Positions 10,696 through 28,898 of a DNA stretch of 64,000 nucleotides are shown here, piece by piece. Each line of letters opens with the position of its first letter. Positions within the stretch are counted from its first letter, which is position 1. Origin of the DNA: an uncultured Clostridia bacterium. GTDB taxonomy: Bacteria > Bacillota > Clostridia > TANB77 > CAG-508. The stretch spans positions 1-64,000 of the forward strand of contig CALXVB010000003.1 of assembly GCA_944391855.1 (NCBI GenBank), given 5' to 3'. A program made the translations under genes and the position numbers. The notes under the pieces were generated by a model. It was not told where the DNA came from, did no database searches, and saw nothing but the letters and a program-made list of their open reading frames with translations.

Positions 10696-12402
10696 TTATT
10701 TTGTCTTTTCAAGTTTTTTTAATTCTACAAATCTTTTTACCTTTTGTGTTGTAGTTTTTTCTAGTGGCTTATCTGTTAGAATAATTTCTTTTATATGTTT
10801 AAAAGTAGGTAATTCTTTATTTATATTTTTTATATCTTCCCATACTAATTTCTCATATTCTTTTTCTGTTTTTTCTCCAAAGTGATCCTTTATATTGTCC
10901 TTGTTATACACAATTTTTGCACAAAGTACAGTGTCTGTTTTACTCTTGTTACGTGCATATACCATGTTTTCTTCTACATATGGAAGTTTATTTATTAAAA
11001 ATTCTAATTCTTGTGGATAAATGTTTTTACCGTTTTTTAATACAATAATATCACTCTTTCTTCCAGTTATATATATAAATCCATCATTATCTATATATCC
11101 ATAGTCCCCTGTGTGAAGCCAGCCATTATCTAATGTTTTTTTAGTTGCCTCTTCATTCTCATAATATCCTAGCATTATGTTAGGGCCTTTTCCTAGTATT
11201 TCTCCTATTCCATTTTTATCTGGATTATCTATTTTTATTTCTACATTTTTAAGTGGTATTCCTATTGAGCCTGCTCTTTTCTTATCAGAAGATTCTGCTG
11301 TAAGTACAGGTGAACTTTCTGTTAAACCATATCCTTGAATTAGTTCTATTCCTAAATCGTTATACCATTCTATAGTTACTTTATCCATAGGCGCTGCACC
11401 ATAAAGTACAACTCTTAAATATTCATCAAATTGTTTTAATACAGGCTTAAATAATTTCTTTCTTACGTCTATTTTACACTTTAGAAGTCCGTGAGAAAGT
11501 TTAGTCATTTTATCTATTAAACCTTTTTTTCCGCTATCGCTAATTGCTTTTTGAATTTTTTTAGCCATTGTTTCAAGTACTAGTGGAACTGCAACAAATA
11601 CGGATACCTTAAATTCTTTTAAATTATCTGCTATATATCTTAATCCTTCACAAAACGCTATTGTTGCACCACAAAATGTACCATATAAAAATGTTATGCT
11701 ACACTCAAAAGTATGGTGTATTGGCAAGAAAGAAAGTAGTGTATCTGTTTCATATATCATAAAATTATATTGATAATTTGAAACATTTTTACAAATATTT
11801 TCTTGTGAAAGCATTACTGCTTTTGGTTCATTAGTTGTGCCTGAAGTAAATAGCATAATGTACATTTCATTTTCATTAAGTTTAATTTCGTCGTATTTTG
11901 CTTTACCTGCCTTTATTACGTCTTCTCCATCTTTTAGCATATTTTCAAATTTTAATACTCCGTCTTTTTCTATATTATCCATGCATATTTTGTATTTTAT
12001 GTTACAGCCTTGGCTAATGGCTTCATCTACTGCATTTTGATATTTTTCTTCATATACTATTGCGTCTACCCCGCTTCTTTTTAAAAGTTTTTCTATTTCT
12101 TTATCTGTTAATGCCTTATCTAATGGTACTATTATTCTTCCAGCTGTTGTTACTCCTAAATATGTTATACACCATTCATACCTATTATTTCCTATAACAG
12201 CTACTCTTTTGACATCTGAAGAAATTACTTTTTCCGCTACTTTTTTTATGTCTCCTACATATTTACTATATGTTACTTCTTCTACTTTTCCATTTCTTTT
12301 ATACTTAAAAGCAATGTTTTCTCCATAGCCTTCATATTTTTTTACTAATTCTCTGAAGTTCGATATCTCTTCATAATACTTGATTTTATCTTTTTTTCTC
12401 AC
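10696..12402 (-). CDS. Long-chain acyl-CoA synthetase (AMP-forming, FadD-like)
   Basis: 568 aa. AMP-binding core LFTSGTTNEPKAVMLSQEN and TGDYGYIDNDGFIYITGRKSD. GTG start with SD AGGAGGA. Divergent from the NRPS. Confidence 0.85.
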   Translation of the reverse strand: MRKKDKIKYYEEISNFRELVKKYEGYGENIAFKYKRNGKVEEVTYSKYVGDIKKVAEKVISSDVKRVAVIGNNRYEWCITYLGVTTAGRIIVPLDKALTDKEIEKLLKRSGVDAIVYEEKYQNAVDEAISQGCNIKYKICMDNIEKDGVLKFENMLKDGEDVIKAGKAKYDEIKLNENEMYIMLFTSGTTNEPKAVMLSQENICKNVSNYQYNFMIYETDTLLSFLPIHHTFECSITFLYGTFCGATIAFCEGLRYIADNLKEFKVSVFVAVPLVLETMAKKIQKAISDSGKKGLIDKMTKLSHGLLKCKIDVRKKLFKPVLKQFDEYLRVVLYGAAPMDKVTIEWYNDLGIELIQGYGLTESSPVLTAESSDKKRAGSIGIPLKNVEIKIDNPDKNGIGEILGKGPNIMLGYYENEEATKKTLDNGWLHTGDYGYIDNDGFIYITGRKSDIIVLKNGKNIYPQELEFLINKLPYVEENMVYARNKSKTDTVLCAKIVYNKDNIKDHFGEKTEKEYEKLVWEDIKNINKELPTFKHIKEIILTDKPLEKTTTQKVKRFVELKKLEKTK

Positions 12403-12548
12403 TAAATTTCCTCCTAATTATTGACTTATATTATATGTTAGATATTTTATAACAAATTCACAGTTTTTTCAATATAGCTGTCATTTTATATTGCTTTTTG
12501 TAATAAAAAATTATATAATATCTTCAAATTTATAAAATCAATATTAGG

Positions 12549-15500
12549 GTGAAAAATATGTTAGAAAAAAATGTTTACGGACTTACAGGTCCACAGAAAA
12601 ATATTTGGAATACAGAACTATTTTTTAATAATTCCAACGTTAATAATGTATGTGCTTCAGGTATTCTTCATGAAGCATTGGATTTTGATTTACTAAAGCA
12701 GGCTTTAAATATACTTGTTAAAGAAAACGATAGTTTTAGAGTTCGCATACAAGTAAAAGATAATGTTCCTGTTCAATATTTTAGTGATTTTGTTCCCTTT
12801 GATGTAGACATATTAAATGCAAATAACAAGAAAGACTTTGCAAAAATAGAGCAAGAAACAGTTTCTAAAAAATTTAATATTTTGGATTCTGATTTATTCT
12901 TATTTAAATTAGTCAGATTTCCTGATAGTACAGGTGGAATAATTTTAAATGTTCACCATATTATTTCTGACTCTTGGTCTTTAGGACTTGTTATACAAGA
13001 GATTATTAAAATTTACCATGCTTTAAAAGCAAATATTGATTATGTACCTGATACATTTTCATATATAGAATATATCAATTCTGAAGAGAAATATAAATCA
13101 AGTAAAAGATATCTATCTGACAAAGAATTTTGGTCAGACTATTTAAGTTCACTCCCTGAACCTGTTACAATTCCAGGTTTAGTTACTTCCACCTCTTCTT
13201 CTAGAGGAAATAGACTTTCATATACAATAGATAAAAAAACTTGTAATTTAATAAATGAATATTGTAGAAGTAATAATATTTCTAACTATGTTTTCTTTAT
13301 GTCTATTTTTGCTTTATATATTGCAAATATTTCCGACTCATTAGACTTTATAATAGGTACACCTATATTAAATAGAACTAATTTTAAAGAGAAAAATACC
13401 ATTGGTATGTTTGTAGAAACAGTACCTTTTAGATTTTCTTTAGACATTTCTTCTAGTTTCAAGGAACTTTCTTCTAAAACTAGTCTTAATTTAATGTCTT
13501 TATTAAGACATCAAAAATATTCATATACAGATATGTTAGAAGATTTGAGAAAACAAGATAATAATATTCCTAATTTATATAATATAGCCATTTCGTATCA
13601 AATTACTAAAGCTTTTTCTAGTGATATTGGAGATTATGAAACAAATTGGGCTTTTAATAACAACTCTTTAAATGATATGAATATACATATATATGATATT
13701 AACGATACTGGATCTTTACAAATCAATTATGATTATCTAATTGATAAATATGCAGAAAAAGATATTGAATTTTTACATTTAAGAATATTAAATATTATTA
13801 AACAAGTGCTAAATTCATCTAATAATTTAAAATTAAGCGATATTAAAGTTATTACTGATGAAGAATTTGGCCAATTAAGTAAATTTAACAACTACACATT
13901 GAACTATTCAACAGCTACTGTTAATGAATTAATTTCAGAAGCTGCTGATAAATACCCTAATAATATTGCAGTGGTAGATAATAATAGGAGAATAACATAT
14001 AGTCAACTCGAGAATTATTCTAATATTATTGCTAACATTTTAATAAAGAATAATATTAAAAGCAATGAAATAGTAGGTATATATATGCCTGAGAAAAATA
14101 TAGATTTAATTTGTTCTGCCTTAGGCATTTTAAAAACTGGTAGCGCTTTTTTAGGTATATATAATGAATATCCTTTAGATAGAATTATATATATGCTTAA
14201 GGATAGCAATTCAAAATGTCTTATTGTAGATGACCTAAATAATCCAAATGTTAAAGCTATAAAAACTGCTATTCCTAATATTTTATTGATTGAAACTAAT
14301 TCTTTAGATTTTTCTAAAAAGTTAGATTTTAAAATAAATACTAAAATAGATTTAGACTCAAATGCATATATAATATATACGTCAGGATCTACTGGTAAGC
14401 CTAAAGGAGTATCATTATCTCATAAGAACTTAATAAACTTTGTATATAGCTTTAGAGAGCATCTACAAGGTGTTGATATAACTGATAGATTTATTAGTGT
14501 TACTAATATTTGTTTTGATGTTAGTATGTCCGAAATATTTACACCTTTGTTTTTTGGTGCAAGTCTCTATTTGTATAAAGACTTAAATTATAGTACACCA
14601 AAAGAACTTGCTGAATATATTACAAAGAATGAGATTACATTTTCATATTTTCCACCTGCTCTACTCTCTCATGTATGTAATGAACTTAAAAAATTAGATG
14701 GTGTAAAATTGTGTAAAATGTTAGTCGGCGTTGAGCCAATTAAAGCCGCTACACTTTCTGAATTTTTGAAAATAAATCCTAATATGAGAATTGTAAATGG
14801 TTATGGTCCAACAGAGACAACTATATGCTGTACAATGTATGATTTTGGTAATACTCTTCCTGCTGATTCTATAGTACCTATAGGTATGCCATTGTATAAC
14901 AATCATCTTTATGTTTTTAATAAATTTATGAACTACTTGCCTATTAATTATCCTGGTATTTTGTGGGTAGCTGGTGATAACGTAGGAAATGGATATATAG
15001 GACAAGCAAAAAATACCACTGATACATATAAAGTATTTAATGGCACTAATTTCTATAATACTGGAGATTTAGTAAAATGGGATGAAAACGGTGTTTTACA
15101 TTTTATTGGTAGAAAAGATAACCAGATTAAATTTCATGGTTATAGAATCGATTTAGGTGAAATTGAAGCTGCAATAAAGAAATTTGAAAATGTAAGTAAT
15201 TGCTTTGTCTTGTCAAATAAAACAAATGAAGTGGATAGATTGGTAGCTTTTATAACTTCTCATTCTATAATAAATGAATTTGATATTAGAACATTTATAT
15301 CTAATATCTTGCCACATTATATGATTCCAAGCGAATTTATCTTTTTAGATACTTTCCCATTAACTCCTAATGGAAAGATAGATAAAAAAGCTTTATTAGA
15401 GCTTGCTAATGTTAAATTTAACAGTTCTAAAGATAATGTAAAACCTAGCTCTCCACTAGAAAATACTCTTGCTAATATATTTTCTAGCGTACTTGGTATA

Positions 15501-18500
15501 TCACAAATTAGTGTGAACGATAACTTTTTTGAACTTGGTGGTGATTCACTAAATGCAATTAAATTAATTGGTAAAATAGAAGAAGAATTACACATGAAAA
15601 TATTAATAAAAGATATTTTTAGCTTTCCTACAGTTGCATCAATGGCTAAATATATAGATCAATACTCTTCAAAAAGTGAAAAAAGAACTATTACGCCAAC
15701 TACTAAAGAAGAGTTTTACCCTCTAAGTTTTGCACAAAAAAGAATATATTATACAGTAAAATTAAATGAAAATTCTATTGTATATAACACACCATTTGGA
15801 ATTATCTTTGACAAAATGCCTGATACTTTAAAATTAGAGGCTTGCTTTAATACAATAATAGATACTAATCAAGCATTACGTACATACTTTGATATAGAGA
15901 ATGGAGAAGTTGTACAGAAAGTTAAGGATAAGATAGATTTTAAATTAGATGTTGTAGAAACAGAAAATAAGAGTATTAATGAAATTTTTGATGATTTCGT
16001 ACAACCTTTTGATTTAAATACAGCACCACTATTTAGAGCCAAATTTGTAAAATCAGGAAATATATATATTTTGCTTGTAGACATGCATCATATTATTTGT
16101 GATGGTCAATCAGCTAATATATTAGCAGATAAACTTTGTAAATTATATAATGATACTTCTATAGAAAAAAATGATATTGACTATATTGATTTTGTAGTTT
16201 GGGAAAGAAAAAACTCTCAAACAGAAGAGTTTGAAAAATCAAAAGAGTTTTGGGTAAATAATTTTAAAGGAGAATTACCTGTTTTAAATATGCCTTTACA
16301 AAAAACTAGACCTAAGGTTCAGTCTTTTAGAGGAAATAAAATATATGATAAAATAGAAGATACAGCTAAATTATATGAATTATGTAAGAACCTTAATGTT
16401 ACACCATATATGCTATTACTATCTTTATATTATGTATTATTATATAAATACACCGGTCAAGACGAATTTGTTGTAGGTTCTCCTATTACAGGTAGGGATA
16501 ATATTCAAACTTCTAATATTATTGGTATGTTTGTTAATACTTTACCTTTAAAGGCTACAGTTAATAAAAATACAAGTTTCCATAACTTGTTAAGCCAAGT
16601 AATGAATAATTGTATTAGAGCTTTTGAAAATCAGTTATATCCTTTTGATGAGCTTGTAAAAGAATTAGATATTCCAAGAGATTCTAGTACTACTCCTATA
16701 TTTAGCACAATGTTTACATTCCAAAATACAGGTGTTCCAAGTTTAGAATTAAATGGTTTGAATGTAAAATATTATATTCCTGATAATAAGACTGCTAAAT
16801 TTGATTTTTCGTTGGAGATATCTCCAATAGGTAATGATTTAGACTTAAATTTAGAATATTGTATTGATTTATTTGATAAGGAATTTATGCAAGATTTTCT
16901 AAAACATTATATTAATATTTATAACTATATATTAAATAATGATATGGAAGTTTTAATAAAAGATATACCTATATTATCTAAAGAAGAAGAAAATTCCTTG
17001 ATATATGAATATAATGATACATATATTGAATATCCTCGTGATAAAACAATAATACAGTTATTTGAAAAACAGGTAAAAGAAACTCCAAATAAAACTGCTA
17101 TTATATTTAATAATAAATCTATAACATATAAAGAATTAAATAAAAAAGCTAACCAAATTGCTTATTATTTAAGGGAAAATGGTATTAAACCTAATAATGT
17201 AGTTGGTATAATGGTAAATCGTTCTTTCGAATTAATTGCTTGCATGCTGGGAATTTTGAAGTCAGGCGCTGCATATTTGCCAATAGACCCAACATATCCA
17301 CAAGAAAGGATAAATTATATTATTAAAGATAGTAATGTTAATATATTACTTACATTAGATAACTTGATAAATAATATTAACATAGATTCTAATGCTAAAG
17401 TTTTACCTGTAAATTTTGATACTAGTGCAATCTACAATTTACCTGATGATAATTTAGATACTGTAAATAAACCAGAAGATTTAGCATATTTAATATATAC
17501 TTCTGGTTCTACTGGTAATCCAAAAGGAGTTATGCTTACACATAGAAATGTTAATAATTTTATAGAAGCAACCTGTAAAGAAATAGAATTTGAAAATATA
17601 ATAGTTTCTGTTACAACTTTCTGTTTTGATATATTTGTGTTAGAATCATTACTTCCTTTGCAAAAAGGATTAACAATAGTACTTGCAAATGAAGAAGAAC
17701 AAAACATACCTCAAAGACTAAATGAACTATGTAATGCCAATAACGTACAAATGTTACAGACAACTCCTGCTAGAATGTCTTTGCTCTTAAGTGATAAAGA
17801 TTCTTTAGAATATATCAAAAACTTAAAAGTAATAATGCTTGGAGGAGAACCATTCCCTCAAAAATTACTTGAAGAACTTAAAAGATTAACAGAGGCAAGA
17901 ATATATAATATGTATGGTCCAACAGAAACTACAGTATGGTCTTCTATAAAAGAACTTACAAATACCTCTGAAATAACTATAGGAAGGCCAATGGGTAATA
18001 CCCAATTCTATATTTTAGATAATGATAATAATCTCTTATCTGCCGGTATGGAAGGACATTTATTCATTGGTGGAGATGGTGTAGGTAACGGATATTTACA
18101 TAGAGTAGAATTAACTAAAGAAAAATTTATAAATAACCCATATAGAGAGAATGATATAATATATGATACAGGAGATATGGCAAAATGGAATAATGAAAAA
18201 GAAGCTATTTGTTTAGGAAGATCTGATTTCCAAGTAAAACTTCACGGTCTTAGAATTGAACTTTCTGAAATAGAAAATAGAATTGTACAATTTCCGAATA
18301 TATCCAAAGCAGTTGTTTGTGTAAAAAAGGATAATTTAGAAAGAGATTTCTTATGTGCTTATTTCGTATCTAAAAGTAGAATAAGTACACCTGCCTTGAA
18401 GGACTTTTTAAGTAAATTCTTACCTACTTACATGGTACCAAATAAATTTAAACAATTATCTGATTTCAAATACACACCTAACGGAAAGATAGATAAGAAA

Positions 18501-19994
18501 GCTTTGCCAGAAATTAGATTTCAAACAAAGAAAGATAACATAGAATTACCTAAAACAGCAACAGAAAAAAAATTGTCTAAAATATATGAAGAGCTTTTAA
18601 GTATTTCTCCAATAAGCATTAATGATAATTTCTTCGAAATTGGTGGAGATTCAATGCTTGCATTAAAGTTGCAAATTAAGTTATTAAATGATAATATATA
18701 TATCACCTATGCAGATATTTTTAAATATCCTACAATAAGACAATTAGCAAATAAGCTTGATACTAATATAGAAAATAATAGTATTTCTGTAGAAAATTAC
18801 GATTTTTCTAATATTCATTCACTTATAAAAGTTAATAGTATAGAAAATATCAAAAGTATATCAAAATTAGAAAAAAGAGAAACCGGAAATATTATTCTTA
18901 CTGGTGCTACTGGCTTTTTAGGTGCGCATATATTATCGCATATATTAGATAATACAAATCTAAAAGTTTATTGTTTATTACGACCTGATTTAAGTATAGA
19001 TATAAATACTAAATTATTAAAAAGATTACAATATTATTTTGGTAATAAATATGATAAATTAATGAATATAAGGATATTTGCAATATCTTCAGATATTACT
19101 AGTGAAGGACTTGGCTTAAACATTGATACACTTACCCTATTGAATAAAGAAGCTTCTTGTGTTATAAATAGTGCTGCTATTGTAAAACATTATGGAGATT
19201 ATTCAGATTTTGAAAAGATAAATGTAAATGGAGTAAAAAATTTAATAAATTTCTGTATTAATAATAATAAAGAATTAATACAAATTTCTACAACTAGTGT
19301 GTCTGGAAATACCTTGTTTGATTTAGCTATTGATAATAATAACTTTAAGGAAGATATTGAATTTAATGAAACTAATTTCTACATTGGACAATCTTTGGAA
19401 AATGTATATGTGCGTAGTAAGTTTGAAGCAGAAAAAATTATATTTGAAAATATGTTTCATAATAACCTAAGGGCATTAATATTAAGAATAGGAAATATAA
19501 CTAATAGAAGTACTGATGGTAAATTTCAGCCCAACGCTTCTGAAAATGCATTTTTAAATAGATTAAAAGCATTTTTAGAGTTAAAATGTGTTCCAAACTA
19601 TTTAAAAAACATATATATTGAATTTAGCCCAGTAGATAAAGTAGCAGAAGCTATATATAAAGCAATATGTTACTCAAATAAATTTAATGTTTTTCACATA
19701 TATAATCCAAACCATATATATATGGAAGATTTAGTTCAGTTATTACCTGAAAATAAATTGACTTTTGTAGAAGATGAAGTATTTGATAAGAAATTACATA
19801 ACTTTATGAAAAAGGTTAGCGATACTACTTCTGTTTCTTACTTAATAAATGATTTAAATAAAGACCAACATATAAATTATGATAATTATATAAAAATAAA
19901 AAATGACTTTACTACTTACTTTTTAAATAAATCTAACTTTAGATGGAATAAAATTGATAAAGATTATATTGAAAAACTATTAAAAAACTTTTAA
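12549..19994 (+). CDS. Bimodular non-ribosomal peptide synthetase, C-A-T-C-A-T-R (terminal thioester reductase)
   Basis: C1 motif HHIISDSWS (His aa 136, nt 12954). A1 core TSGSTGKPKG at nt 14379-14408. T1 motif GGDS, Ser aa 1000 (nt 15546). C2 motif HHIICDG (nt 16086). A2 core TSGSTGNPKG at nt 17499-17528. T2 motif GGDS, Ser aa 2035 (nt 18651). R domain GATGFLG (nt 18903-18923) plus YVRSK. The true start may be ATG 12558 (MLEKN), 8 nt after AGGGTG. Confidence 0.95.
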   Translation: MKNMLEKNVYGLTGPQKNIWNTELFFNNSNVNNVCASGILHEALDFDLLKQALNILVKENDSFRVRIQVKDNVPVQYFSDFVPFDVDILNANNKKDFAKIEQETVSKKFNILDSDLFLFKLVRFPDSTGGIILNVHHIISDSWSLGLVIQEIIKIYHALKANIDYVPDTFSYIEYINSEEKYKSSKRYLSDKEFWSDYLSSLPEPVTIPGLVTSTSSSRGNRLSYTIDKKTCNLINEYCRSNNISNYVFFMSIFALYIANISDSLDFIIGTPILNRTNFKEKNTIGMFVETVPFRFSLDISSSFKELSSKTSLNLMSLLRHQKYSYTDMLEDLRKQDNNIPNLYNIAISYQITKAFSSDIGDYETNWAFNNNSLNDMNIHIYDINDTGSLQINYDYLIDKYAEKDIEFLHLRILNIIKQVLNSSNNLKLSDIKVITDEEFGQLSKFNNYTLNYSTATVNELISEAADKYPNNIAVVDNNRRITYSQLENYSNIIANILIKNNIKSNEIVGIYMPEKNIDLICSALGILKTGSAFLGIYNEYPLDRIIYMLKDSNSKCLIVDDLNNPNVKAIKTAIPNILLIETNSLDFSKKLDFKINTKIDLDSNAYIIYTSGSTGKPKGVSLSHKNLINFVYSFREHLQGVDITDRFISVTNICFDVSMSEIFTPLFFGASLYLYKDLNYSTPKELAEYITKNEITFSYFPPALLSHVCNELKKLDGVKLCKMLVGVEPIKAATLSEFLKINPNMRIVNGYGPTETTICCTMYDFGNTLPADSIVPIGMPLYNNHLYVFNKFMNYLPINYPGILWVAGDNVGNGYIGQAKNTTDTYKVFNGTNFYNTGDLVKWDENGVLHFIGRKDNQIKFHGYRIDLGEIEAAIKKFENVSNCFVLSNKTNEVDRLVAFITSHSIINEFDIRTFISNILPHYMIPSEFIFLDTFPLTPNGKIDKKALLELANVKFNSSKDNVKPSSPLENTLANIFSSVLGISQISVNDNFFELGGDSLNAIKLIGKIEEELHMKILIKDIFSFPTVASMAKYIDQYSSKSEKRTITPTTKEEFYPLSFAQKRIYYTVKLNENSIVYNTPFGIIFDKMPDTLKLEACFNTIIDTNQALRTYFDIENGEVVQKVKDKIDFKLDVVETENKSINEIFDDFVQPFDLNTAPLFRAKFVKSGNIYILLVDMHHIICDGQSANILADKLCKLYNDTSIEKNDIDYIDFVVWERKNSQTEEFEKSKEFWVNNFKGELPVLNMPLQKTRPKVQSFRGNKIYDKIEDTAKLYELCKNLNVTPYMLLLSLYYVLLYKYTGQDEFVVGSPITGRDNIQTSNIIGMFVNTLPLKATVNKNTSFHNLLSQVMNNCIRAFENQLYPFDELVKELDIPRDSSTTPIFSTMFTFQNTGVPSLELNGLNVKYYIPDNKTAKFDFSLEISPIGNDLDLNLEYCIDLFDKEFMQDFLKHYINIYNYILNNDMEVLIKDIPILSKEEENSLIYEYNDTYIEYPRDKTIIQLFEKQVKETPNKTAIIFNNKSITYKELNKKANQIAYYLRENGIKPNNVVGIMVNRSFELIACMLGILKSGAAYLPIDPTYPQERINYIIKDSNVNILLTLDNLINNINIDSNAKVLPVNFDTSAIYNLPDDNLDTVNKPEDLAYLIYTSGSTGNPKGVMLTHRNVNNFIEATCKEIEFENIIVSVTTFCFDIFVLESLLPLQKGLTIVLANEEEQNIPQRLNELCNANNVQMLQTTPARMSLLLSDKDSLEYIKNLKVIMLGGEPFPQKLLEELKRLTEARIYNMYGPTETTVWSSIKELTNTSEITIGRPMGNTQFYILDNDNNLLSAGMEGHLFIGGDGVGNGYLHRVELTKEKFINNPYRENDIIYDTGDMAKWNNEKEAICLGRSDFQVKLHGLRIELSEIENRIVQFPNISKAVVCVKKDNLERDFLCAYFVSKSRISTPALKDFLSKFLPTYMVPNKFKQLSDFKYTPNGKIDKKALPEIRFQTKKDNIELPKTATEKKLSKIYEELLSISPISINDNFFEIGGDSMLALKLQIKLLNDNIYITYADIFKYPTIRQLANKLDTNIENNSISVENYDFSNIHSLIKVNSIENIKSISKLEKRETGNIILTGATGFLGAHILSHILDNTNLKVYCLLRPDLSIDINTKLLKRLQYYFGNKYDKLMNIRIFAISSDITSEGLGLNIDTLTLLNKEASCVINSAAIVKHYGDYSDFEKINVNGVKNLINFCINNNKELIQISTTSVSGNTLFDLAIDNNNFKEDIEFNETNFYIGQSLENVYVRSKFEAEKIIFENMFHNNLRALILRIGNITNRSTDGKFQPNASENAFLNRLKAFLELKCVPNYLKNIYIEFSPVDKVAEAIYKAICYSNKFNVFHIYNPNHIYMEDLVQLLPENKLTFVEDEVFDKKLHNFMKKVSDTTSVSYLINDLNKDQHINYDNYIKIKNDFTTYFLNKSNFRWNKIDKDYIEKLLKNF

Positions 19995-20019
19995 TTATAT
20001 TATAGGAGGAAAACATAGG

Positions 20020-21822
20020 ATGACCACTTTTTTACTATTATATTTTTCGGTAATAATTATTCTTGTAATAATACTTTTAATCAACAGAACCAAAAATAAC
20101 AATCAGCTAGCAAAAATATATACATGTAGCTTAGTTTGTATATTAATATGGGTTACGGCATTACTGTGTCAAATGACTTTTGCTGAAAGGTATAACATTC
20201 CTCCTATATATTTTGATTATGTAGCATATATAGGTATATGTTTTCTGCCTATTAGTGTACTCTTTACTGGTATATGCTTTTCAAAAACGCATGTTACTTT
20301 TAAGAAAAAGCATCTATTGCTATTTATTGTACCAATCATAACTTTGCTATTACTTTGGACAAATGACTACCATCATTTATTATATGAGCACTATTCTATA
20401 TACTTAAACGACTGCGTTTCCGGTCCATATATGATAATGCATAATATATATTCATACGGTTTGCTCTTGATTGGTGTAATGTATTTATTAATATTTTCTT
20501 TTAGGAACTCAGGATTTTTCTCAAAACAATCAGTACTGATTTTTATTGGAATGCTTATTCCTTTAGTAGTTAATGTTTTGGGAACATTCAAAATTCTACC
20601 TATGACAATATATATAACACCTATGACATTTACTCTAACAATGATATTTACTGCACTTGCAATTTTTAAATTTAACTTTTTGTCCGCAACGCCTATTGCA
20701 CTTCAGCGTATTGTCGACACTATGTCTGATGGATATATAGTTCTAAATACTTATAATGTTGTAGTAGATTTTAACTTATCTTTGTTAAAAATGTTAAACA
20801 CAACTGAAGAGAAAGTTAGAAACAAGGATTTTATAGAGCTTCTTAATTTCACTGAATTTACTAAATCTGAAATTAAGAAAGTGGCTCACTATATAGCCTT
20901 ATCAAAAAGCAATAATAAAACTTATACTATGGATAAAGAAAGCAAAGTAACAGAAAAGTATTTTCATATAGAAATAAGTGGATTAATGTCTGAAAATACT
21001 AATATAGGAACTTTAATACTCCTTAAAGATACGACTCAGCACATGATAGATTTACATACCATACAAAATAGTCAAAATTTACTTATGGAAAGAGAGCGTT
21101 TAGCATCACTTGGACAATTAATCGGTGGTATTGCACATAACTTAAAAACACCTATAATGTCAATTTCAGGTGCAGCTGAAGGTTTAACAGATTTAATTCA
21201 TGAATATGATACTTCTATAGGTGACCCGGAAGTTACAAATGATGATCATCATGCCATTGCAAAAGATATGTCAGAATGGGTTAGTAAAATTAAATCATAT
21301 ACAGAATACATGTCAGACGTAATTACAGCTGTTAAAGGGCAGGCAGTTACTCTTTCTGAAAATGATTCTACTTCTTTTGATATTGACGAATTAGTTAAAA
21401 GAGTAAATATATTGATGAGGCATGAATTAAAAAATGCTTTAGTAACATTAAATACAGAGATGAATATAGACAAAAGTACAACTTTGCATGGTGATATAAC
21501 TAGTCTAGTTCAAGTTATTAACAATATGATTTCTAATAGTATTCAAGCATATAATGGAGAGCCTAATAAAGTAATTGATTTAATAATAAAAAAACATGCT
21601 TCAAATGTAGTTATTTCAGTAAGAGATTATGGAAATGGTCTTCCAGAAGAAGTAAAAGAAAAATTATTTAAAGAAATGATAACAACAAAAGGGAAAAATG
21701 GTACTGGTCTTGGATTATTTATGTCTTACTCTACAATAAGAGCACATTTTAATGGAGATATAACATTTGAAACTAAACAAGGTAAAGGTTCTACATTTAA
21801 TATAGTTATACCTATTAAATAA
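20020..21822 (+). CDS. Sensor histidine kinase with N-terminal 7TM domain, PAS-like linker, HisKA and HATPase_c
   Basis: Seven hydrophobic helices in the first ~220 aa. H-box LIGGIAHNLKTPI. G-boxes DYGNGLPEE and GTGLGL. Starts 25 nt after the NRPS stop with SD AGGAGGA and no intervening terminator. Confidence 0.85.
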   Translation: MTTFLLLYFSVIIILVIILLINRTKNNNQLAKIYTCSLVCILIWVTALLCQMTFAERYNIPPIYFDYVAYIGICFLPISVLFTGICFSKTHVTFKKKHLLLFIVPIITLLLLWTNDYHHLLYEHYSIYLNDCVSGPYMIMHNIYSYGLLLIGVMYLLIFSFRNSGFFSKQSVLIFIGMLIPLVVNVLGTFKILPMTIYITPMTFTLTMIFTALAIFKFNFLSATPIALQRIVDTMSDGYIVLNTYNVVVDFNLSLLKMLNTTEEKVRNKDFIELLNFTEFTKSEIKKVAHYIALSKSNNKTYTMDKESKVTEKYFHIEISGLMSENTNIGTLILLKDTTQHMIDLHTIQNSQNLLMERERLASLGQLIGGIAHNLKTPIMSISGAAEGLTDLIHEYDTSIGDPEVTNDDHHAIAKDMSEWVSKIKSYTEYMSDVITAVKGQAVTLSENDSTSFDIDELVKRVNILMRHELKNALVTLNTEMNIDKSTTLHGDITSLVQVINNMISNSIQAYNGEPNKVIDLIIKKHASNVVISVRDYGNGLPEEVKEKLFKEMITTKGKNGTGLGLFMSYSTIRAHFNGDITFETKQGKGSTFNIVIPIK

Positions 21823-21844
21823 TATAATTTATATAAAAGAGGTT

Positions 21845-21884
21845 AGAAAATATAGTAAAAATATATGCTATATTTTCTTTTTTA
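21845..21884 (+). terminator. Rho-independent terminator after the kinase gene
   Basis: AGAAAATATAG / CTATATTTTCT stem (21845-21855 / 21868-21878) followed by a T-run. Confidence 0.65.
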
Positions 21885-21991
21885 ATTTTATAGTAAAGTT
21901 TAATCTCTTTTAATTTTTTTATAAAAAGTATCTTGATTTTTTGTCAAACTACTAATATAATTAGTTATATTCTGAATAAGAAGGTGATATT

Positions 21992-23047
21992 ATGAGAAAA
22001 AATGAGAATATTGCAAAATCTAATGGATATAAGATTATAGCAGTTGATGATGAAGAAGGAATAGTAGATTCACTTTCTATATTCCTAAAAAGGTCAGGTT
22101 ATCAGTTTACAGGAGTTACCGATCCACTAGAGGCAATAGAAAAAGTAAAAAATGAACACTTTGATTTAATGATTTTGGACTTTATAATGGAACCTATACA
22201 TGGTGATAAGGTTGTAGAAGAAATTCGTAAATTTAATAAAGAATTATACATTTTATTACTTACTGGTCATAAAGATTTAGCCCCACCGCTTGAGACTATT
22301 AGAGAATTAGACATTCAAGGATATTGCGAAAAAAGTGATAAATTTGACCAACTTTTATTACTTATAGAGTCAGGAATTAAATCTATTGAACAAATGAATG
22401 AAATTAAGAGAATAAATGAAGAGCTTTCCGAAACTTATGAAAGATTGGAAAAGGCTTACTTAGATAGTATACAAACACTAAGGTATACAGTTGAAGCAAA
22501 GGATCCATATACAAGAGGTCATTCTGATAGAGTATCTGAGTATTCTGTTTTAATAGGCAAGAAGTTAGGTTTATCAGATGATGATTTAAAAACCTTACGT
22601 GTTGGCGGGTTATTCCATGATATTGGTAAGATTGGAATACCAGACAGTATACTTTTAAAAGAATCAAAATTAACAGATGATGAATATTCAGAAATAAAAA
22701 GTCATCCATCTATTGGTGCACATATTCTTTGTAATGCAGAAGTATTTAAAGATATCATACCAATAGTAAAGCATCACCACGAAAGATATGATGGAAGAGG
22801 ATATCCAGGGCAATTAAAAGGAGAAGATATTCCATATTTTGCAAGAATTGCTGCTGTGGCTGATAGCTTTGATGCGATGACCTCAAAAAGGACTTATAGA
22901 AATTCATTAGATATTTCTATAGTACGTTCTGAAATAGAAAAGAATCTAGGAACTCAATTTGACCCTAAATTAGGCAAAATTTTCATAGATATAATTGATA
23001 ATGAATATGATAAAATAAAGGAAATACAGGAAAAATATCCTTCATAA
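21992..23047 (+). CDS. Response regulator, receiver + HD-GYP domain (RpfG-like c-di-GMP phosphodiesterase)
   Basis: Receiver (IIAVDDEEGI...DLMILDFIMEP). HD-GYP signature HDIGKIGIP...HHERYDGRGYPG. Confidence 0.9.
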   Translation: MRKNENIAKSNGYKIIAVDDEEGIVDSLSIFLKRSGYQFTGVTDPLEAIEKVKNEHFDLMILDFIMEPIHGDKVVEEIRKFNKELYILLLTGHKDLAPPLETIRELDIQGYCEKSDKFDQLLLLIESGIKSIEQMNEIKRINEELSETYERLEKAYLDSIQTLRYTVEAKDPYTRGHSDRVSEYSVLIGKKLGLSDDDLKTLRVGGLFHDIGKIGIPDSILLKESKLTDDEYSEIKSHPSIGAHILCNAEVFKDIIPIVKHHHERYDGRGYPGQLKGEDIPYFARIAAVADSFDAMTSKRTYRNSLDISIVRSEIEKNLGTQFDPKLGKIFIDIIDNEYDKIKEIQEKYPS

Positions 23048-23052
23048 TAATT

Positions 23053-23079
23053 TCCCCGGTTAGCCCGGGGATTTTTTTA
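23053..23079 (+). terminator. Rho-independent terminator
   Basis: CCCCGG ttagc CCGGGG stem-loop (23054-23070) followed by ATTTTTTT. Confidence 0.75.
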
Positions 23080-23131
23080 CTTATATAAAATTGTGGACAA
23101 ATGGAAGTAGCCCCTTTTGTCCACGATTTTC

Positions 23132-25312
23132 TTAAATTTTCATACTTAATTTTACTTTTTGTCTTTCACTATCTATTCCTATAACTTTGACTTTTACTAC
23201 GTCTCCAACTGAAACTATATCTGATGGATTTTTTACAAAACTATTGCTCAATTCTGATATATGTACTAATCCATCATGCTTTACTCCTACATCTACAAAT
23301 GCACCAAAATCTGTTACATTTCTTACTGTTCCTGTTAATATTTGCCCTTCTCTTAAATCTTCGAACTTAAGTACATCTGCTCTTAATATTGGTTTTGGCA
23401 TTTCTTCTCTTGGGTCTCTTCCTGGTTTAGATAATTCTTCTATTATATCTTTTAAGGTTATCTCTCCTACATTTAACTCTTTTGCTGTGGTCTCTATTTT
23501 TATATTTGCTAATTTTTCTTTTATTTCTTTTAATTTGTTCTTATCTGTTAAATCTTCCTTTTTATATCCAACTTTATTTAATAAATTTTCTGCTACTTCA
23601 TAGCTTTCCGGATGCACGGCTGTTATCTCTAATGGATTTTTACCGTCTGGTATTCTAATAAACCCTGCGCATTGTTCAAATGCTGCTTTTCCGAGTTTTG
23701 GTACTTTTAATAGTTCTTTTCTTTCTTTTATTTTTCCATTTGCGTCTCTATATTTTACAATATTATTTGCTATTGTTTTATTTATTCCTGCAATATATTG
23801 TAATAATGATGGTGTAGCTGTATTTATATCTACTCCTACTTTGTTTACTGCATCTTCCACAACACCGGTTAAACTTTCTGATAGCTTCTTTTGATCAACA
23901 TCATGTTGGTATTGTCCTACTCCTATTGCTTTTGGATCTATTTTTACAAGTTCTGCTAATGGATCTTGTAATCTTCTTGCTATTGATATTGCACCTCTTA
24001 AAGAAACATTTATATCTGGATATTCTTCAGTTGCAAGTTTCGAAGCAGAATATACTGATGCACCAGCTTCTGATACTATGGTATAGTAAACATCTTTATT
24101 TAATTCTTCTTTTGCCTTTTTTATTACACCTGAAACAAATGCTTCTGATTCTCTTGATGCAGTTCCATTTCCTATGGCAAACATATTAGCATCATATTTT
24201 TTGATTAAATCTAACAATACTTTTGTCGCACCTTCTTCGTCGTTTTGTGGCTCTGTTGGATAGATTGTAGTTGTATCTAATACTTTACCTGTTTCGTCTA
24301 TTACAGCAATTTTACAACCTGTTCTATATGCTGGGTCAAAACCTATTACAGTTAAATTTTTTATTGGTGCACCTAGAAGTAGCTGTTTTGCATTACTTCC
24401 AAATACTTTTATTGCCTTTTCCTCTGCTTTTTCTGTTAAATCAGAACGTATCTCTCTATCTATTGATGGTTCTATTAATCTTTTCCAACTATCTAAAATA
24501 GTAGCTTTTAAATATTCTTCAAACTGGGTATGTCCTTTTAGTATATCTCTTTCCATAAAATATATTATTTTATCTTCTGGCTTATCTATTTTTACCTTTA
24601 AAAATTCTTCCTTTTCTCCCCTATTTATAGCTAAAATCCTGTGGCTTGGTAATCTATTTATTTTTTCGTTAAAATCATAATACATATTATAGCTAGAATT
24701 TTCTTCTGGTTTTGTACCTTTTACATTCATTATTCCTTCTCTATAGCAAATACCTTTTATCTTCTTTCTATATCTAGCATTATCAGATATATTTTCTGCA
24801 ATTATATCTAACGCACCAGAAATTGCTTCATTCACATTTGCAACTATTTTTTCTTTTGGAGTGTCTTTTTCCACATTTACAAAATCTTTTGCTATTTCTT
24901 TTATTGGTCTACTTTCAGCTTGTTCATATATTATATCAGCCAAGGGCTCTAGTCCCTTAGCTTTTGCTATGGTTGCTCTAGTTTTCTTTTTAGGTTTATA
25001 TGGTCTATATATATCTTCTACATCTGCTAAAGTTACAGCATCTGCTATTGACTTTGAAATCTCTTCTGTAAGTTTTCCTTGTTCTTCAATAGATTTTAAT
25101 ACTTCTTCTTTTCTTTTTTCTAGATTTCTTAAATATGTAAGTCTATCTCCTAAATCTCTTAATATTTCATCAGATAGGCCTCCAGTTACTTCTTTTCTGT
25201 AACGAGCAATAAATGGAATAGTATTTCCTTCATCTATTAAATTTACAGTTGCCTCTACCTGTTTTTCTTTAATATTTAACTCTTCTGCAATAATTTTTAT
25301 AATCTTATCCAT
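23132..25312 (-). CDS. tex: Tex-like transcription accessory protein (YqgF/HHH/S1 domains)
   Basis: 726 aa. N-terminus IAEELNIKEKQVEATVNLIDEGNTIPFIARYRKE. C-terminal S1 domain GQILTGTVRNVTDFGAFVDVGVKHDGLVHISEL. Confidence 0.95.
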   Translation of the reverse strand: MDKIIKIIAEELNIKEKQVEATVNLIDEGNTIPFIARYRKEVTGGLSDEILRDLGDRLTYLRNLEKRKEEVLKSIEEQGKLTEEISKSIADAVTLADVEDIYRPYKPKKKTRATIAKAKGLEPLADIIYEQAESRPIKEIAKDFVNVEKDTPKEKIVANVNEAISGALDIIAENISDNARYRKKIKGICYREGIMNVKGTKPEENSSYNMYYDFNEKINRLPSHRILAINRGEKEEFLKVKIDKPEDKIIYFMERDILKGHTQFEEYLKATILDSWKRLIEPSIDREIRSDLTEKAEEKAIKVFGSNAKQLLLGAPIKNLTVIGFDPAYRTGCKIAVIDETGKVLDTTTIYPTEPQNDEEGATKVLLDLIKKYDANMFAIGNGTASRESEAFVSGVIKKAKEELNKDVYYTIVSEAGASVYSASKLATEEYPDINVSLRGAISIARRLQDPLAELVKIDPKAIGVGQYQHDVDQKKLSESLTGVVEDAVNKVGVDINTATPSLLQYIAGINKTIANNIVKYRDANGKIKERKELLKVPKLGKAAFEQCAGFIRIPDGKNPLEITAVHPESYEVAENLLNKVGYKKEDLTDKNKLKEIKEKLANIKIETTAKELNVGEITLKDIIEELSKPGRDPREEMPKPILRADVLKFEDLREGQILTGTVRNVTDFGAFVDVGVKHDGLVHISELSNSFVKNPSDIVSVGDVVKVKVIGIDSERQKVKLSMKI

Positions 25313-25458
25313 TGTTTCTTCCTTTCTTTTAATATTTACTTTTTAAGTAAAAACATATATTTTATTATATCACTTTTTTCTTCAATTATGCAAATGTTGT
25401 TTTTTGTCTAAAAATATTATATAATGTATATGTATTAAAAAATAAAGGAGGACGTTTT

Positions 25459-26142
25459 ATGGGAATCGCTTCATTTGTTGTAGGAATTACGTGTTTAATT
25501 CTATCACCATTTTTATCTGTATTGTTAATTTTACCTTCACTTCTAGGACTTATTTTAGGTATAGTAGATACAGTTATAAAATCAAAGAAAAAACAACCAA
25601 AAGGACTTTCAATAGCTGGTATTGTCCTTTCTACAATAGCTTTAGTGATATGTATCTTTGTTGTGGTAGTTGCTGTTACAATATATACTAATGCAACAGA
25701 AGCTGTATCAAGCAGTACAAGTAGCACTTTAGAAGATTTATTACCTCTTAATCAAACTTGCAATGTTGGTGAAAGTGCAACATTAGATGATATTAAAGTA
25801 ACTTTAGTTTCTGTAGACACAGATTTTGAGGATTATTACAGTTATGCGTTAGTAGATGACGATTGTAATATTGTACAAGCAAATTTTGAATTTGAAAATG
25901 TAGGAGATTACACAGAATATGTTTCATACTATGACTTCACATGCTTTGCAGATAAATTTTCTTGTGATTCTTTCTATTCTGTAGAAGGTTCTTATTTCTA
26001 TGAAACAATAGAGAGTGGTAAAAAAGCTAGAGGATCTGTATATTTTGAGGTTCCTAAAGATGCAGATACAATAGAAATAGAATATGATGGAAATTCATAT
26101 GATGACTCAGAAATAACATTTATCGTAAAAGATGCTGAATAA
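25459..26142 (+). CDS. Membrane-anchored DUF4352-like protein
   Basis: Two N-terminal TM helices, then a beta-rich domain ending in KKARGSVYFEVPKDADTIEIEY, a typical DUF4352-type ending as I recall it. Confidence 0.5.
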   Translation: MGIASFVVGITCLILSPFLSVLLILPSLLGLILGIVDTVIKSKKKQPKGLSIAGIVLSTIALVICIFVVVVAVTIYTNATEAVSSSTSSTLEDLLPLNQTCNVGESATLDDIKVTLVSVDTDFEDYYSYALVDDDCNIVQANFEFENVGDYTEYVSYYDFTCFADKFSCDSFYSVEGSYFYETIESGKKARGSVYFEVPKDADTIEIEYDGNSYDDSEITFIVKDAE

Positions 26143-26173
26143 TCATTCACTTATACACAAAATATACATTAAA

Positions 26174-26216
26174 TTATCCACAGAGTTTTACACACTGTGG
26201 ATAATTTTTGTTTTTT
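26174..26216 (+). terminator. Rho-independent terminator whose stem is two perfect inverted DnaA-box 9-mers
   Basis: TTATCCACAG (26174-26183) / CTGTGGATAA (26195-26204), 11-nt loop, then TTTTTGTTTTTTG. Confidence 0.7.
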
Positions 26217-26226
26217 GTTCATATTT

Positions 26227-27807: not shown

Positions 27808-27825
27808 AATAAATTCCTCCTTATT

Positions 27826-28785
27826 TTAATCAAGCATTCCTTTTTTCTTAAGCCATACTGATGCTACTACTCCTATTAATATAGAGAATACTACTATTAG
27901 CACAAATCCAAATGGATTTTCTTGTAGTGGAACAGGTACGTTCATTCCCCAGTAACTTGCAATCATTGTTGGAATTGCTAAAATAATTGTTATTGAGGTT
28001 AAATACTTCATTACTCCATTTAGATTGTTTGAAATAATTGAAGCATACGCATCCATTGTTCCTGTTAAAATATCTCTATATATCTTTGCCATCTCTATGG
28101 CCTGTTTATTCTCTATAATAGCATCTTCTAATATATCTTCATCTTCGTCATAAAGTTTTATTAGGTTTCCCCTCATTGTTTTTTCCATTACTACCTCATT
28201 TGATTTTAAAGAAGTAGTAAAATATACAAGTCCTTTTTCTAAACTTAATAATTTTAATAATGCTTTATTCTTCATAGAATTCTTTAAAACATTCTCTGCT
28301 ATTTCTGTTTCTTTATTTAACTTTTTTAATAAGTTTAAGAACATTTCCGCATTTGAATAAAATAACTGTAAAAGCATTCTGCTCTTTTTATATGTAATTA
28401 TGTTCTTTATTTTTCTTTTTTCTAAATCTTCTAATATTGGATTTTTGTTTAATGATACGGTTATTATATAATCGTCTCTAACGAAAATAACTCCTATAGG
28501 TGCTGTACTATATACTTTTGTCCCTGATTCGATTTCCATTATTGGAGTATCTACAATAAATAATATTGTGTTATCGTCATCTTCTACGTCTATTCTGGCT
28601 TTCTCTTCTGGGTCTAATGCGTATCTAATGAAGTCTTCTTGTATGTTAATGTTTTCACATATTGTCTTTATTTCTTCATCACTCGGTGAAACTACGTTAA
28701 TCCAATTTCCCCTTATAAATTCTTTTGTCTCTTCAGTTATATTTGTTTCTATATTTGTATTATACATTTTAAACATAGTTATCAC
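27826..28785 (-). CDS. corA: CorA-family magnesium/cobalt transporter
   Basis: YWGMNVP (GMN motif) between two C-terminal TM helices. 18 nt upstream of the ABC-F gene, so probably one operon. Confidence 0.85.
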   Translation of the reverse strand: MITMFKMYNTNIETNITEETKEFIRGNWINVVSPSDEEIKTICENINIQEDFIRYALDPEEKARIDVEDDDNTILFIVDTPIMEIESGTKVYSTAPIGVIFVRDDYIITVSLNKNPILEDLEKRKIKNIITYKKSRMLLQLFYSNAEMFLNLLKKLNKETEIAENVLKNSMKNKALLKLLSLEKGLVYFTTSLKSNEVVMEKTMRGNLIKLYDEDEDILEDAIIENKQAIEMAKIYRDILTGTMDAYASIISNNLNGVMKYLTSITIILAIPTMIASYWGMNVPVPLQENPFGFVLIVVFSILIGVVASVWLKKKGMLD

Positions 28786-28845
28786 CCCTTAGGACAATAT
28801 ATTAACATAATTTTCAAGTTATTACAACTTAAATTTGAAAAAATA

Positions 28846-28874: not shown

Positions 28875-28898
28875 AGTTATGTTGTTTATATTATATAT

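Follow-up and report, generated by a model that had tools for sequence, protein, structure and literature searches.

Genes and transcription signals of the locus

The locus described here lies within a stretch of 64,000 nucleotides of an uncultured Clostridia bacterium (positions 1 to 64,000 of contig CALXVB010000003.1, assembly GCA_944391855.1), which is referred to as the window. It consists of a gene for a nonribosomal peptide synthetase (NRPS), followed on the same strand by a gene for a sensor histidine kinase and then by a gene for a regulator with a receiver (REC) and an HD-GYP domain, and every feature listed for it was found at its given coordinate. The original prediction, made from the window itself, had proposed a circuit coupling the NRPS, or perception of its product, to turnover of cyclic di-GMP (c-di-GMP). 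This proposal gains support from related loci, among which NRPS and kinase sensor co-vary and one of which carries a fusion of a PilZ domain to the NRPS.

The open reading frame (ORF) of the NRPS (12549..19994, plus strand; stop codon TAA at 19992-19994) comprises 2481 codons, and the true start is likely the ATG at 12558 behind AGGGTGA. Based on Pfam, it encodes two modules of condensation (C), adenylation (A) and thiolation (T) domains and a terminal reductase (R) of the NAD_binding_4 family, giving the order C-A-T-C-A-T-R. The motifs HHxxxD and GGDS (two each), GATGFLG and YxxxK are intact. The A-domain codes were read against a GrsA reference whose anchor residues give the published code DAWTIAAICK; they are DVSYLGGICK and DILQMGMVWK, the second being glycine-like. 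The best NCBIfam match of the protein is AusA (NF047350) with 1520 bits. Membership in this equivalog family was rejected, as the score lies below the cutoff of 2500, the match spans residues 721-2476 only, and an extra N-terminal C domain is present compared with A-T-C-A-T-R. Divergent from the NRPS gene is a gene for an acyl-AMP/CoA ligase (10696..12402, minus strand; Pfam AMP-binding and AMP-binding_C_3). This ligase is found in a subset of the related loci only. Close relatives share 82-95% identity in the ligase but just 24-60% in the NRPS. It belongs to the conserved part of the locus and probably supplies an acyl starter for the N-terminal C domain of the NRPS.

A candidate promoter for an NRPS-kinase operon was predicted by reading the sequence at 12492..12520 on the plus strand (TTGCTT, 17 nt, TATAAT); relatives carry a TTGATT...TATAAT pair at the equivalent position. 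The ATG of the kinase (20020) is separated from the NRPS stop by a junction of 25 nt (19995..20019, plus strand), which contains the Shine-Dalgarno sequence AGGAGGA at 20004-20010 and no terminator. Folding of the junction is no better than that of shuffled sequence (z -0.42), in agreement with the earlier statement that no hairpin intervenes. The terminator noted behind the kinase was recovered as an AT-rich hairpin (21845-21878) followed by five T (21845..21883 in all, plus strand; -12.4 kcal/mol, z -3.0). Just 2 of its 13 pairs are G-C, too few for the consensus terminator scan, which therefore missed it, and it is probably a weak, plausibly leaky intrinsic terminator.

The regulator gene (21992..23047, plus strand) is preceded by a promoter of its own (21933..21991, plus strand), found as a scan match and by footprinting, with TTGATT-17-TATAAT at 21933-21961 and the Shine-Dalgarno sequence AAGGTGAT at 21980-21987. 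Promoter-like sites occur in the AT-rich window at chance level (98 found versus 107 expected), so that the sequence leaves room for promoters inside the NRPS gene. The regulator promoter was accepted as real because the window and the related loci L002, L020 and L025 agree fully in the two hexamers and in the Shine-Dalgarno sequence, amid a spacer that has otherwise diverged. This phylogenetic footprint across four species also backs the separate transcription that had been proposed for the regulator. The terminator expected behind this gene is a G+C-rich intrinsic terminator (23053..23079, plus strand) with a 7-pair stem (6 G-C) at 23053-23071 and T7 (region -35.5 kcal/mol, z -6.8). In relatives, an extended -35 region TTGATTTTT and a TATAAT -10 are common to the NRPS promoter (12380-12560) and the regulator promoter (21900-21991). 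The NRPS promoter of the window has diverged to TTGCTT, and no operator common to the NRPS and regulator promoters was identified.

Sensor kinase and HD-GYP regulator

The kinase (20020-21822) has 600 amino acids, in which Pfam assigns HisKA_7TM to residues 7-225, PAS to 228-337, a partial HisKA to 364-401 and HATPase_c to 491-599. Its membership in HisKA_7TM (PF16927) follows from 132.3 bits against a cutoff of 28.6 and coverage of profile positions 2-224 of 224. HATPase_c scores 69 bits; HisKA scores 27.4 bits, just over its cutoff of 26.9 and for profile positions 2-31 only. The features of a class I histidine kinase are present, with His373 in GGIAHNLKTP, NNMISNS (N), DYGNG (G1) and GTGLGL (G2), and the best Protein Data Bank (PDB) relative of the core is ThkA (3a0r_A). 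The protein ends with HATPase_c at residue 599 of 600 and carries neither a receiver nor a histidine phosphotransfer (HPt) domain. The gene can be divided into a sensor half (20020..21054, plus strand), encoding seven transmembrane (TM) helices (7TM; residues 1-220) and a cytoplasmic PAS domain (238-337), and a core (21055..21822, plus strand), encoding the dimerisation and histidine phosphotransfer (DHp) domain with His373 (codon 21136-21138) and the catalytic ATP-binding domain.

An AlphaFold2 model of residues 1-345 (predicted local distance difference test, pLDDT, 81.8) shows seven TM helices with short loops, an ill-defined linker and a canonical PAS domain, and hydropathy concurs with it. 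LOV, heme and WalK-type PAS domains are matched by the modelled PAS. Seven-helix folds of the G-protein-coupled receptor (GPCR) type can be superposed on the helical bundle, with lipid-ligand receptors as the best natural matches; this likeness is a fold-level resemblance of a predicted model only. Among the related kinases with the same sensor architecture, the H-box block is 95% identical, and the most variable stretches are TM1-TM2 (residues 1-60) and residues 261-300. The latter cover PAS helices which usually line the ligand pocket and are cytoplasmic in the model. The original prediction took it as established that HisKA_7TM kinases sense membrane or extracellular cues. This was overclaimed, as the literature found on the domain is confined to census-type listings. 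To our knowledge, no ligand is known for this sensor family.

The regulator consists of 351 amino acids with REC at residues 15-124 (Response_reg, 63 bits) and HD_5 at residues 165-327 (131 bits), where Pfam also reports HD. The receiver contains D19/D20, D63 (codon 22178-22180), T91 and K114, and the HD-GYP domain contains H177, H209-D210, H238, H262-H263-E264, DGRGYP and D294. Its signature HHERYDGRGYPG is located at residues 262-273 (window 22775-22810). Across 46 orthologues, conservation reaches 98% or more for most catalytic His/Asp and GYP positions, including the HD at 209-210 and the GYP at 270-272; H238, H262 and D294 are conserved in less than 90%. The closest solved relatives of the domain are V-cGAP3 (5z7c) and PmGH (4mcw), both active enzymes, and from the alignment to them the substrate could be c-di-GMP or cyclic GMP-AMP (cGAMP). 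The third-metal Glu of PmGH is replaced by Tyr in the window regulator, as in V-cGAP3. Thus the regulator is predicted to be a phosphorylation-controlled cyclic-dinucleotide phosphodiesterase. The nearest named NCBIfam model, NF053512 (NosR-family response regulator c-di-GMP phosphodiesterase), was rejected as an assignment, the score being 208 bits against a cutoff of 400.

A further hint of a connection between NRPS and c-di-GMP comes from the distant locus L024. The syntenic NRPS of this locus (4435-9987), a C-A-T protein ending in a thioesterase (TE), bears an N-terminal extension of about 546 amino acids with a PilZ domain at residues 108-206. This domain scores 29-31 bits in Pfam (cutoff 22.5) and contains RxxxR as RKRSR and DxSxxG as DLSLNG. 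About 340 amino acids without assigned function lie between PilZ and the C domain. A free-standing homologue of the extension (543 amino acids, 25% identity, E 2e-48) is encoded in L023 (119-1750), 4 nt upstream of the 7TM kinase; the contig leaves just 118 nt upstream of this gene. The fusion is a single case, and one further homologue of the extension (P0121) was found among 5.8 billion proteins. It has no sequence relative in the PDB, and its single-sequence AlphaFold2 model reaches a pLDDT of 33. As a domain fusion, the L024 protein hints that NRPS and c-di-GMP signalling belong together. The NRPS of the window has no PilZ domain.

A hypervariable cassette in a conserved frame

Related loci were collected in two ways. 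A kinase search with one genome per species yielded 56 Clostridia loci (species set), and an independent sample anchored on the regulator yielded 80 metagenome contigs (metagenome set). About 100 loci of uncultured gut Clostridia show the order NRPS, kinase, regulator. An NRPS gene is located directly upstream of the kinase on the same strand in 55 of the 56 species loci, with a median of 12 nt between NRPS stop and kinase start, a gap of at most 27 nt in 38 of 50 loci and several overlaps. In three loci (e.g. L099, L100) NRPS and kinase are jointly inverted with respect to the regulator and still form an intact unit. These observations provide comparative backing for the predicted co-transcription of NRPS and kinase. 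The regulator follows the kinase in most loci, with three classes of spacing: 10 loci show a gap of at most 54 nt or an overlap, 24 loci a gap of 116-318 nt, often with a hairpin and T-run whose sequences differ between loci, and 9 loci a gap of more than 600 nt with inserted genes. The tight class occurs mostly in distant lineages, including those with 39-47% kinase identity, which suggests an ancestral three-gene operon. In the metagenome set a kinase accompanies the regulator in 64 of 80 loci, and most of the other 16 have too short flanks. The window contains no other kinase or receiver. The pairing of kinase and regulator, which had been assumed from adjacency, is thus supported by conserved synteny, by the tight or overlapping loci and by the regulator-anchored sample.

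This arrangement extends to distant relatives. Kinases that are 39-47% identical to that of the window (L019, L023, L024, L053 and L056) still precede a regulator, and L024, L053, L056 and L063 keep the arrangement although their flanking genes differ. The upstream NRPS of L024, L053 and L056 terminates in a thioesterase, not a reductase. In the regulators of the same three loci, which were the ones scanned, a DUF3369 domain lies between REC and HD-GYP. The regulators of L019, L023, L024, L053 and L056 have about 500-514 amino acids.

Judged from these comparisons, the NRPS and the sensor half of the kinase are one hypervariable cassette, whereas ligase, kinase core, regulator and the neighbouring gene tex are a conserved frame. 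The NRPS, the predicted signal synthase, forms the 5' part of the cassette, and the sensor half forms the 3' part. Two kinase types occur. Type A, as in the window, consists of HisKA_7TM and PAS, and type B combines some five TM helices with a loop of about 120 amino acids, a further TM helix and HAMP. Both sensors are polytopic membrane modules on the same core with a near-identical H-box, but a profile comparison by hhalign found no homology between them (probability 1%). The sensor type corresponds to the number of NRPS modules. Type A occurs with a two-module NRPS in 24/24 cases of the species set and 26/26 of the metagenome set, and type B with a one-module C-A-T-R NRPS in 24/24 and 12/14, respectively. 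In L109 the NRPS is frameshifted, and in L073 it is replaced by a relaxase/recombinase element; both are exceptions to this rule, as are L015, L017 and L018, described below. At least 11 switches of sensor type are required on the tree of kinase core and regulator (42 species; 9-18 with random labelling) and at least 7 on the Tex tree, and the number of NRPS modules switched along with the sensor in all but two loci.

The contrast between cassette and frame is evident in individual comparisons. NRPS identity is just 24-60% to species with a 93-96% identical ABC-F protein. Compared with the window, L002, L020 and L025 share 94-95% identity in ABC-F, 88-91% in the regulator and 81-83% in the kinase core, but their NRPS domains share 22-58%, and the sensors are 49% identical in L002 and L020 and unalignable in L025. 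L009 (type A) and L030 (type B) have ABC-F proteins that are 100% identical, with 96% in Tex, 93% in the regulator and 84% in the core, and nevertheless carry unrelated sensors and NRPS domains of 25-40% identity. Among species equidistant from the window in ABC-F (93-96%), Tex (84-87%), regulator (86-93%) and DHp (83-88%), divergence of the two cassette parts is graded. NRPS domains and sensor are 76-85% and 76-78% identical in L059, 56-75% and 64-73% in L061, and 63-79% and 60-71% in L063, compared with 24-69% and 43-56% in L002, L020 and L005, and with 23-53% and an unalignable sensor in L025. In genomes whose sensor has been replaced or shares 43-56% identity, CorA, another membrane protein, is still 81-90% identical. 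Of the other genomes found, L065 is the nearest (88-89% nucleotide identity in regulator and tex), yet it has a type B sensor.

The borders of the cassette are sharp. Homology at the nucleotide level breaks off at the 5' end of the NRPS gene and returns at kinase residues 347-352, the junction of sensor and DHp, in the pairs L009/L030, L008/L029, window/L025 and window/L065, which represent three independent contrasts as L008/L029 mirrors L009/L030. In the window, homology with relatives carrying another cassette resumes at 21042-21073 (residues 347-351). The type B pair L035/L052 regains homology at residue 389, inside HAMP.

Sensor and NRPS also co-vary within this pattern. In partial Mantel tests the sensor correlates with the NRPS C domain when the core is controlled for (rho 0.53-0.55, p<0.001); the correlation of core and NRPS given the sensor is not significant. 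More than 20 distinct A-domain codes occur among the loci. Both codes of the window are exactly shared by L059, L061 and L063, the three loci whose sensors are most similar to its own. In type B, sensor identity is 0.56 for pairs with the same A-domain code versus 0.30 (nominal p 4e-8), with no difference in core or regulator identity. The ratio of nonsynonymous to synonymous substitution rates (dN/dS) within allele lineages is 0.05-0.33 for both kinase halves. This indicates purifying selection and thus functional sensors. These dN/dS values refer to whole domains, and dS is saturated in most pairs, so that they speak neither for nor against site-specific diversifying selection on the sensor. 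In the comparison of L002 with L005, dS differs five-fold between sensor and core, which points to recombination and not to accelerated change.

Polymorphism of the cassette within a species was not seen, the sole genome of the same species (L001) having the same allele. Divergence between the window and L001 is mosaic and not specific to the cassette, which indicates frequent recombination between strains. Within the compared region (10000-29000) divergence is 0% at 12-13 kb and 21.5-25 kb. It rises to 0.2-4% for the NRPS and kinase genes, 4-6% for the ligase/HtrA region and 7-12% beyond 25.5 kb.

Several loci depart from the usual composition. L073 (1-9857) has a type B kinase and a regulator but no NRPS, in place of which a relaxase and two serine recombinases are found; it could be a 'listener-only' variant or a recent disruption. 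Tandem kinases follow one NRPS in L015 (8765-12665; type B, then type A) and in L021 (9980-14152; a full type A kinase, then a second type A copy missing about 110 N-terminal residues). The kinase is frameshifted in five assembled genomes, in L036, L044, L049 and L051 at residues ~315-370 and in L055 at ~545. The first four frameshifts are located at the junction of sensor and core, where conserved meets hypervariable sequence. They may be genuine pseudogenes or stem from chimeric assembly of strains that co-exist.

Convergent to the regulator lies tex (23132-25312, minus strand; Tex domains by Pfam) with a second long hairpin (23087..23130, minus strand), which was found by folding and is probably its terminator. 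The other neighbours of the three-gene locus encode an HtrA-like protease, a Mur-ligase-family protein, an ABC-F protein and CorA. Over about 17.8 kb, the window shares 97.5% identity with the gut metagenome-assembled genome 'uncultured Clostridia bacterium BRZ_CH__bin9'. At 54000-64000 the minus strand encodes gyrB, recF, dnaN and dnaA, and yidC, jag and mnmE come next in the plus orientation, the genes from recF to mnmE filling 55-64 kb; this gene order places the replication origin at ~59.6-60.6 kb, about 40 kb from the NRPS locus. The region 39505-52399 contains two TraG/VirD4-like coupling-protein ATPases (39505-41085 and 49801-51654), a ParA-like ATPase, a DnaB_2-domain protein, a DnaC/IstB-like ATPase and ORFs without Pfam match, with gyrA (45086-47524) amid these genes; the region may be a remnant of a conjugative element or plasmid-like module. 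A phage replisome-organiser-like gene, a helix-turn-helix regulator, a Schlafen/AlbA_2 protein and a HATPase_c_4 protein at 496-4260 look like a prophage remnant or a defence-related island.

Relation to known systems and interpretation

The rpf locus of Xanthomonas contains the same types of genes, namely rpfB (acyl-CoA ligase), rpfF (synthase), rpfC (kinase) and rpfG (REC-HD-GYP), and is the closest known system in its logic, RpfC binding the fatty-acid signal DSF (diffusible signal factor) directly (PMC5391125). Like Rpf, the window locus combines a REC-HD-GYP regulator without DNA-binding domain with an adjacent kinase and synthase and a ligase in the cluster. This likeness is one of logic and is known from domains, sequence orthology being evident for the shared domains only. 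The synthase of the window is a 2481-aa NRPS, whereas RpfF belongs to the crotonase family. The window kinase is not a hybrid, whereas RpfC has a receiver and an HPt domain, and the host is a Gram-positive gut anaerobe. The input domain of RpfC is of the 5-TM type, that of the window kinase being 7TM-PAS. We know of no hypervariability of synthase and sensor between species as a feature of Rpf, as seen at this locus.

In the staphylococcal agr and streptococcal com loci, hypervariability extends over the signal genes and the kinase's sensor half, kinase domain and regulator are conserved, and the alleles define specificity groups (PMC10482373). The same distribution is found here, with a variable NRPS and sensor, a breakpoint at the sensor/DHp junction and a conserved core and regulator. 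However, the agr signal is a ribosomal peptide processed by AgrB, while here the signal would be made by an NRPS. As a LytTR transcription factor, AgrA allows autoinduction, while the output here is an enzyme. Moreover, agr alleles segregate within one species, whereas the variation at this locus was seen between species. AgrC and the window kinase are homologous only in the general kinase fold, and Pfam revealed no AgrD, AgrB, HPK10-type kinase or LytTR regulator domain at the locus. In the absence of RpfF, a hybrid kinase, AgrB/AgrD and LytTR, the locus is a member of neither Rpf nor agr.

Precedents for the chemistry of a possible signal exist. NRPSs of the AusA/PznA type release a dipeptide aldehyde by two modules and a thioester reductase, which can cyclise to a pyrazinone, and N-acyl tails are described for some members of the gut dipeptide-aldehyde family (both in PMC8210680). 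Such tails fit the starter C domain and the acyl ligase found here. The dipeptide-aldehyde NRPSs of gut Clostridia (Guo et al. 2017, Cell 168:517) resemble the window NRPS by architecture (two modules and a reductase) and habitat only. AusA of Staphylococcus aureus lacks the N-terminal C domain that the window NRPS has. The role proposed for the gut enzymes is inhibition of host proteases, not self-signalling, and the searched literature held no report of those clusters with a dedicated kinase and HD-GYP regulator. Likewise, no association of NRPS, kinase and HD-GYP regulator was described in the searchable literature. Pyrazinone and pyrazine autoinducers of Enterobacteria and Vibrio (the autoinducer-3 (AI-3) family, 3,5-dimethylpyrazin-2-ol (DPO) and the leupeptin-derived pyrazinones of Klebsiella oxytoca) arise from peptide-aldehyde or amino-ketone chemistry (PMC11480411). 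They are a precedent for the proposed kind of product acting as a signal. They depend on other enzymes and receptors and are not encoded as a synthase-receptor cassette with an HD-GYP output.

The joint swapping of NRPS and sensor on a fixed core and regulator suggests that the cell senses its own NRPS product. The best reading of the sequence data, at a probability of roughly 0.55, is that the kinase senses the NRPS product and controls hydrolysis of c-di-GMP. The locus would then be a three-part signalling module of a quorum-sensing or self-sensing-like kind. The NRPS probably receives its primer from the adjacent acyl-AMP ligase; its product would be a small N-acyl dipeptide, released by the reductase as an aldehyde. 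The kinase, whose spacing from the NRPS gene points to translation from the same mRNA, would perceive this product or a derivative by its 7TM-PAS sensor half, as co-variation suggests. It would then phosphorylate Asp63 of the separately transcribed regulator, in line with conserved synteny, and the regulator would, by homology, shift the rate at which c-di-GMP or a related cyclic dinucleotide is hydrolysed. Across species, synthase and sensor half are exchanged jointly as alleles on a retained core and regulator, so that each lineage would possess its own signal-receptor pair with one common output.

A number of observations speak against product sensing coupled to c-di-GMP. The pairing is imperfect: no kinase adjoins the regulator in six metagenome-set loci that have 2.7 kb or more of upstream sequence, no regulator occurs within 10 kb of the kinase in five loci, a one-module NRPS goes with a type A (7TM) sensor in L017 and L018, and L015 carries both kinase types. 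In type A, the divergence of the sensor shows no significant correlation with that of the last A domain (partial rho 0.09), and pairs sharing one of two A-domain codes have no higher sensor identity (0.47 versus 0.46). NRPSs are mosaic, as in L002 versus L005, where the C domain is 98%, A 53%, R 45% and the sensor 80% identical. NRPS and sensor are also adjacent, and recombination in the conserved flanks moves both whatever their function. On the output side, the best solved relative of the HD-GYP domain, V-cGAP3, is a cGAMP-specific phosphodiesterase, and no autoinduction loop is evident since the regulator has no DNA-binding domain. A motif search of the 64-kb window revealed no GGDEF or EAL, and Pfam, applied to most of its ORFs of at least 120 aa, found neither PilZ nor GGDEF/EAL domains. 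No c-di-GMP riboswitch or other known RNA was detected in the window at the gathering threshold, and none came from more sensitive scans, which covered the NRPS leader and the spacer between kinase and regulator, or from scans of 7 related loci.

The adjacency just mentioned is the basis of an explanation by linkage only, which appears unlikely but accounts for part of the data. In that case the two-component system would sense an unrelated membrane or host cue, the NRPS would be a neighbouring secondary-metabolite gene, for instance for a protease inhibitor directed against host or competitors, and co-variation would stem from allelic replacement with ligase or HtrA as recombination arm on one side and the kinase core on the other. 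Breakpoints exactly where conserved sequence starts, the recombination shown by the five-fold dS difference between L002 and L005 and the failure of type A sensors to track the last A domain fit this explanation, and dipeptide aldehydes of gut commensals are indeed reported as host-protease inhibitors (PMC8210680, citing Guo et al. 2017). However, it does not explain why the sensor is hypervariable, or even of unrelated architecture, in genomes with a well-conserved CorA, why two unrelated sensors occur on one core and remain under purifying selection, or why the unity of NRPS and kinase persists across inversions and the pairing persists in relatives with thioesterase-ended NRPSs. The PilZ-NRPS fusion is left unexplained as well. 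Furthermore, the sensor correlates more with the distal C domain than with the adjacent R domain, an order unlike that predicted from the length of recombination tracts alone. If linkage were the whole explanation, the locus would still illustrate clearly how a cassette is replaced, with one recombination breakpoint falling within a gene where two domains meet.

The PilZ fusion has a different meaning if control runs in the reverse direction, with the kinase sensing an external or substrate cue, such as the amino acids used by the NRPS, and tuning NRPS activity or product release via c-di-GMP. The NRPS of L024 is then likely a c-di-GMP target, with a free-standing homologue of its extension beside the L023 kinase. 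The co-variation of type B sensors with A-domain codes also fits sensing of substrate amino acids, and the hypervariable PAS stretch is cytoplasmic. Nevertheless, such control is improbable at the locus as a whole: the fusion is an isolated case, PilZ is missing from the window NRPS and was not found in the other scanned ORFs of the window, c-di-GMP riboswitches were found neither in the window nor in the 7 related loci scanned, and a kinase co-transcribed behind its own target would be an unusual design for an upstream regulator. Reverse control and product sensing are not mutually exclusive. An ordinary two-component system located by coincidence beside an NRPS gene in one genome, with neither function nor transcription shared, is very improbable. 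Promoter-like matches at chance level and the broad conservation of gene order in the region (HtrA ... Tex, ABC-F, CorA) agree with it, the latter making synteny among close relatives weak evidence. However, about 100 loci keep the arrangement, including the distant ones with other flanks (L024, L053, L056 and L063), NRPS and kinase overlap or lie within 27 nt of each other in most loci, and the cassette was co-inherited across at least 7-11 switches.

Product sensing by the kinase is open to experiment, as natural allele pairs with the same frame and a different cassette, e.g. L009/L030, permit cognate and non-cognate products to be compared on one core. More tentatively, a whole family of abundant, yet uncultured, gut Clostridia might communicate by NRPS-made small molecules, with alleles of synthase and sensor for each species or group and a common kinase core and REC-HD-GYP regulator. 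If so, the signals would be compounds such as N-acyl peptide aldehydes or pyrazinones, with dozens of alleles and two unrelated receptor architectures, and the system would be the NRPS-based counterpart of agr pherotypes, with c-di-GMP as its output. Bacteria would possess, in the 7TM sensor, a GPCR-like receptor for a defined class of ligands, the first candidate class for the widespread HisKA_7TM domain. The native role of at least part of the gut 'dipeptide aldehyde' NRPS family would be signalling, instead of or besides inhibition of host proteases, and a receptor and output pathway would be available for gut-microbiome NRPS products whose physiological role is debated. Pherotype-like signalling would thus be based on an NRPS rather than a ribosomal peptide, in organisms that have never been cultured.

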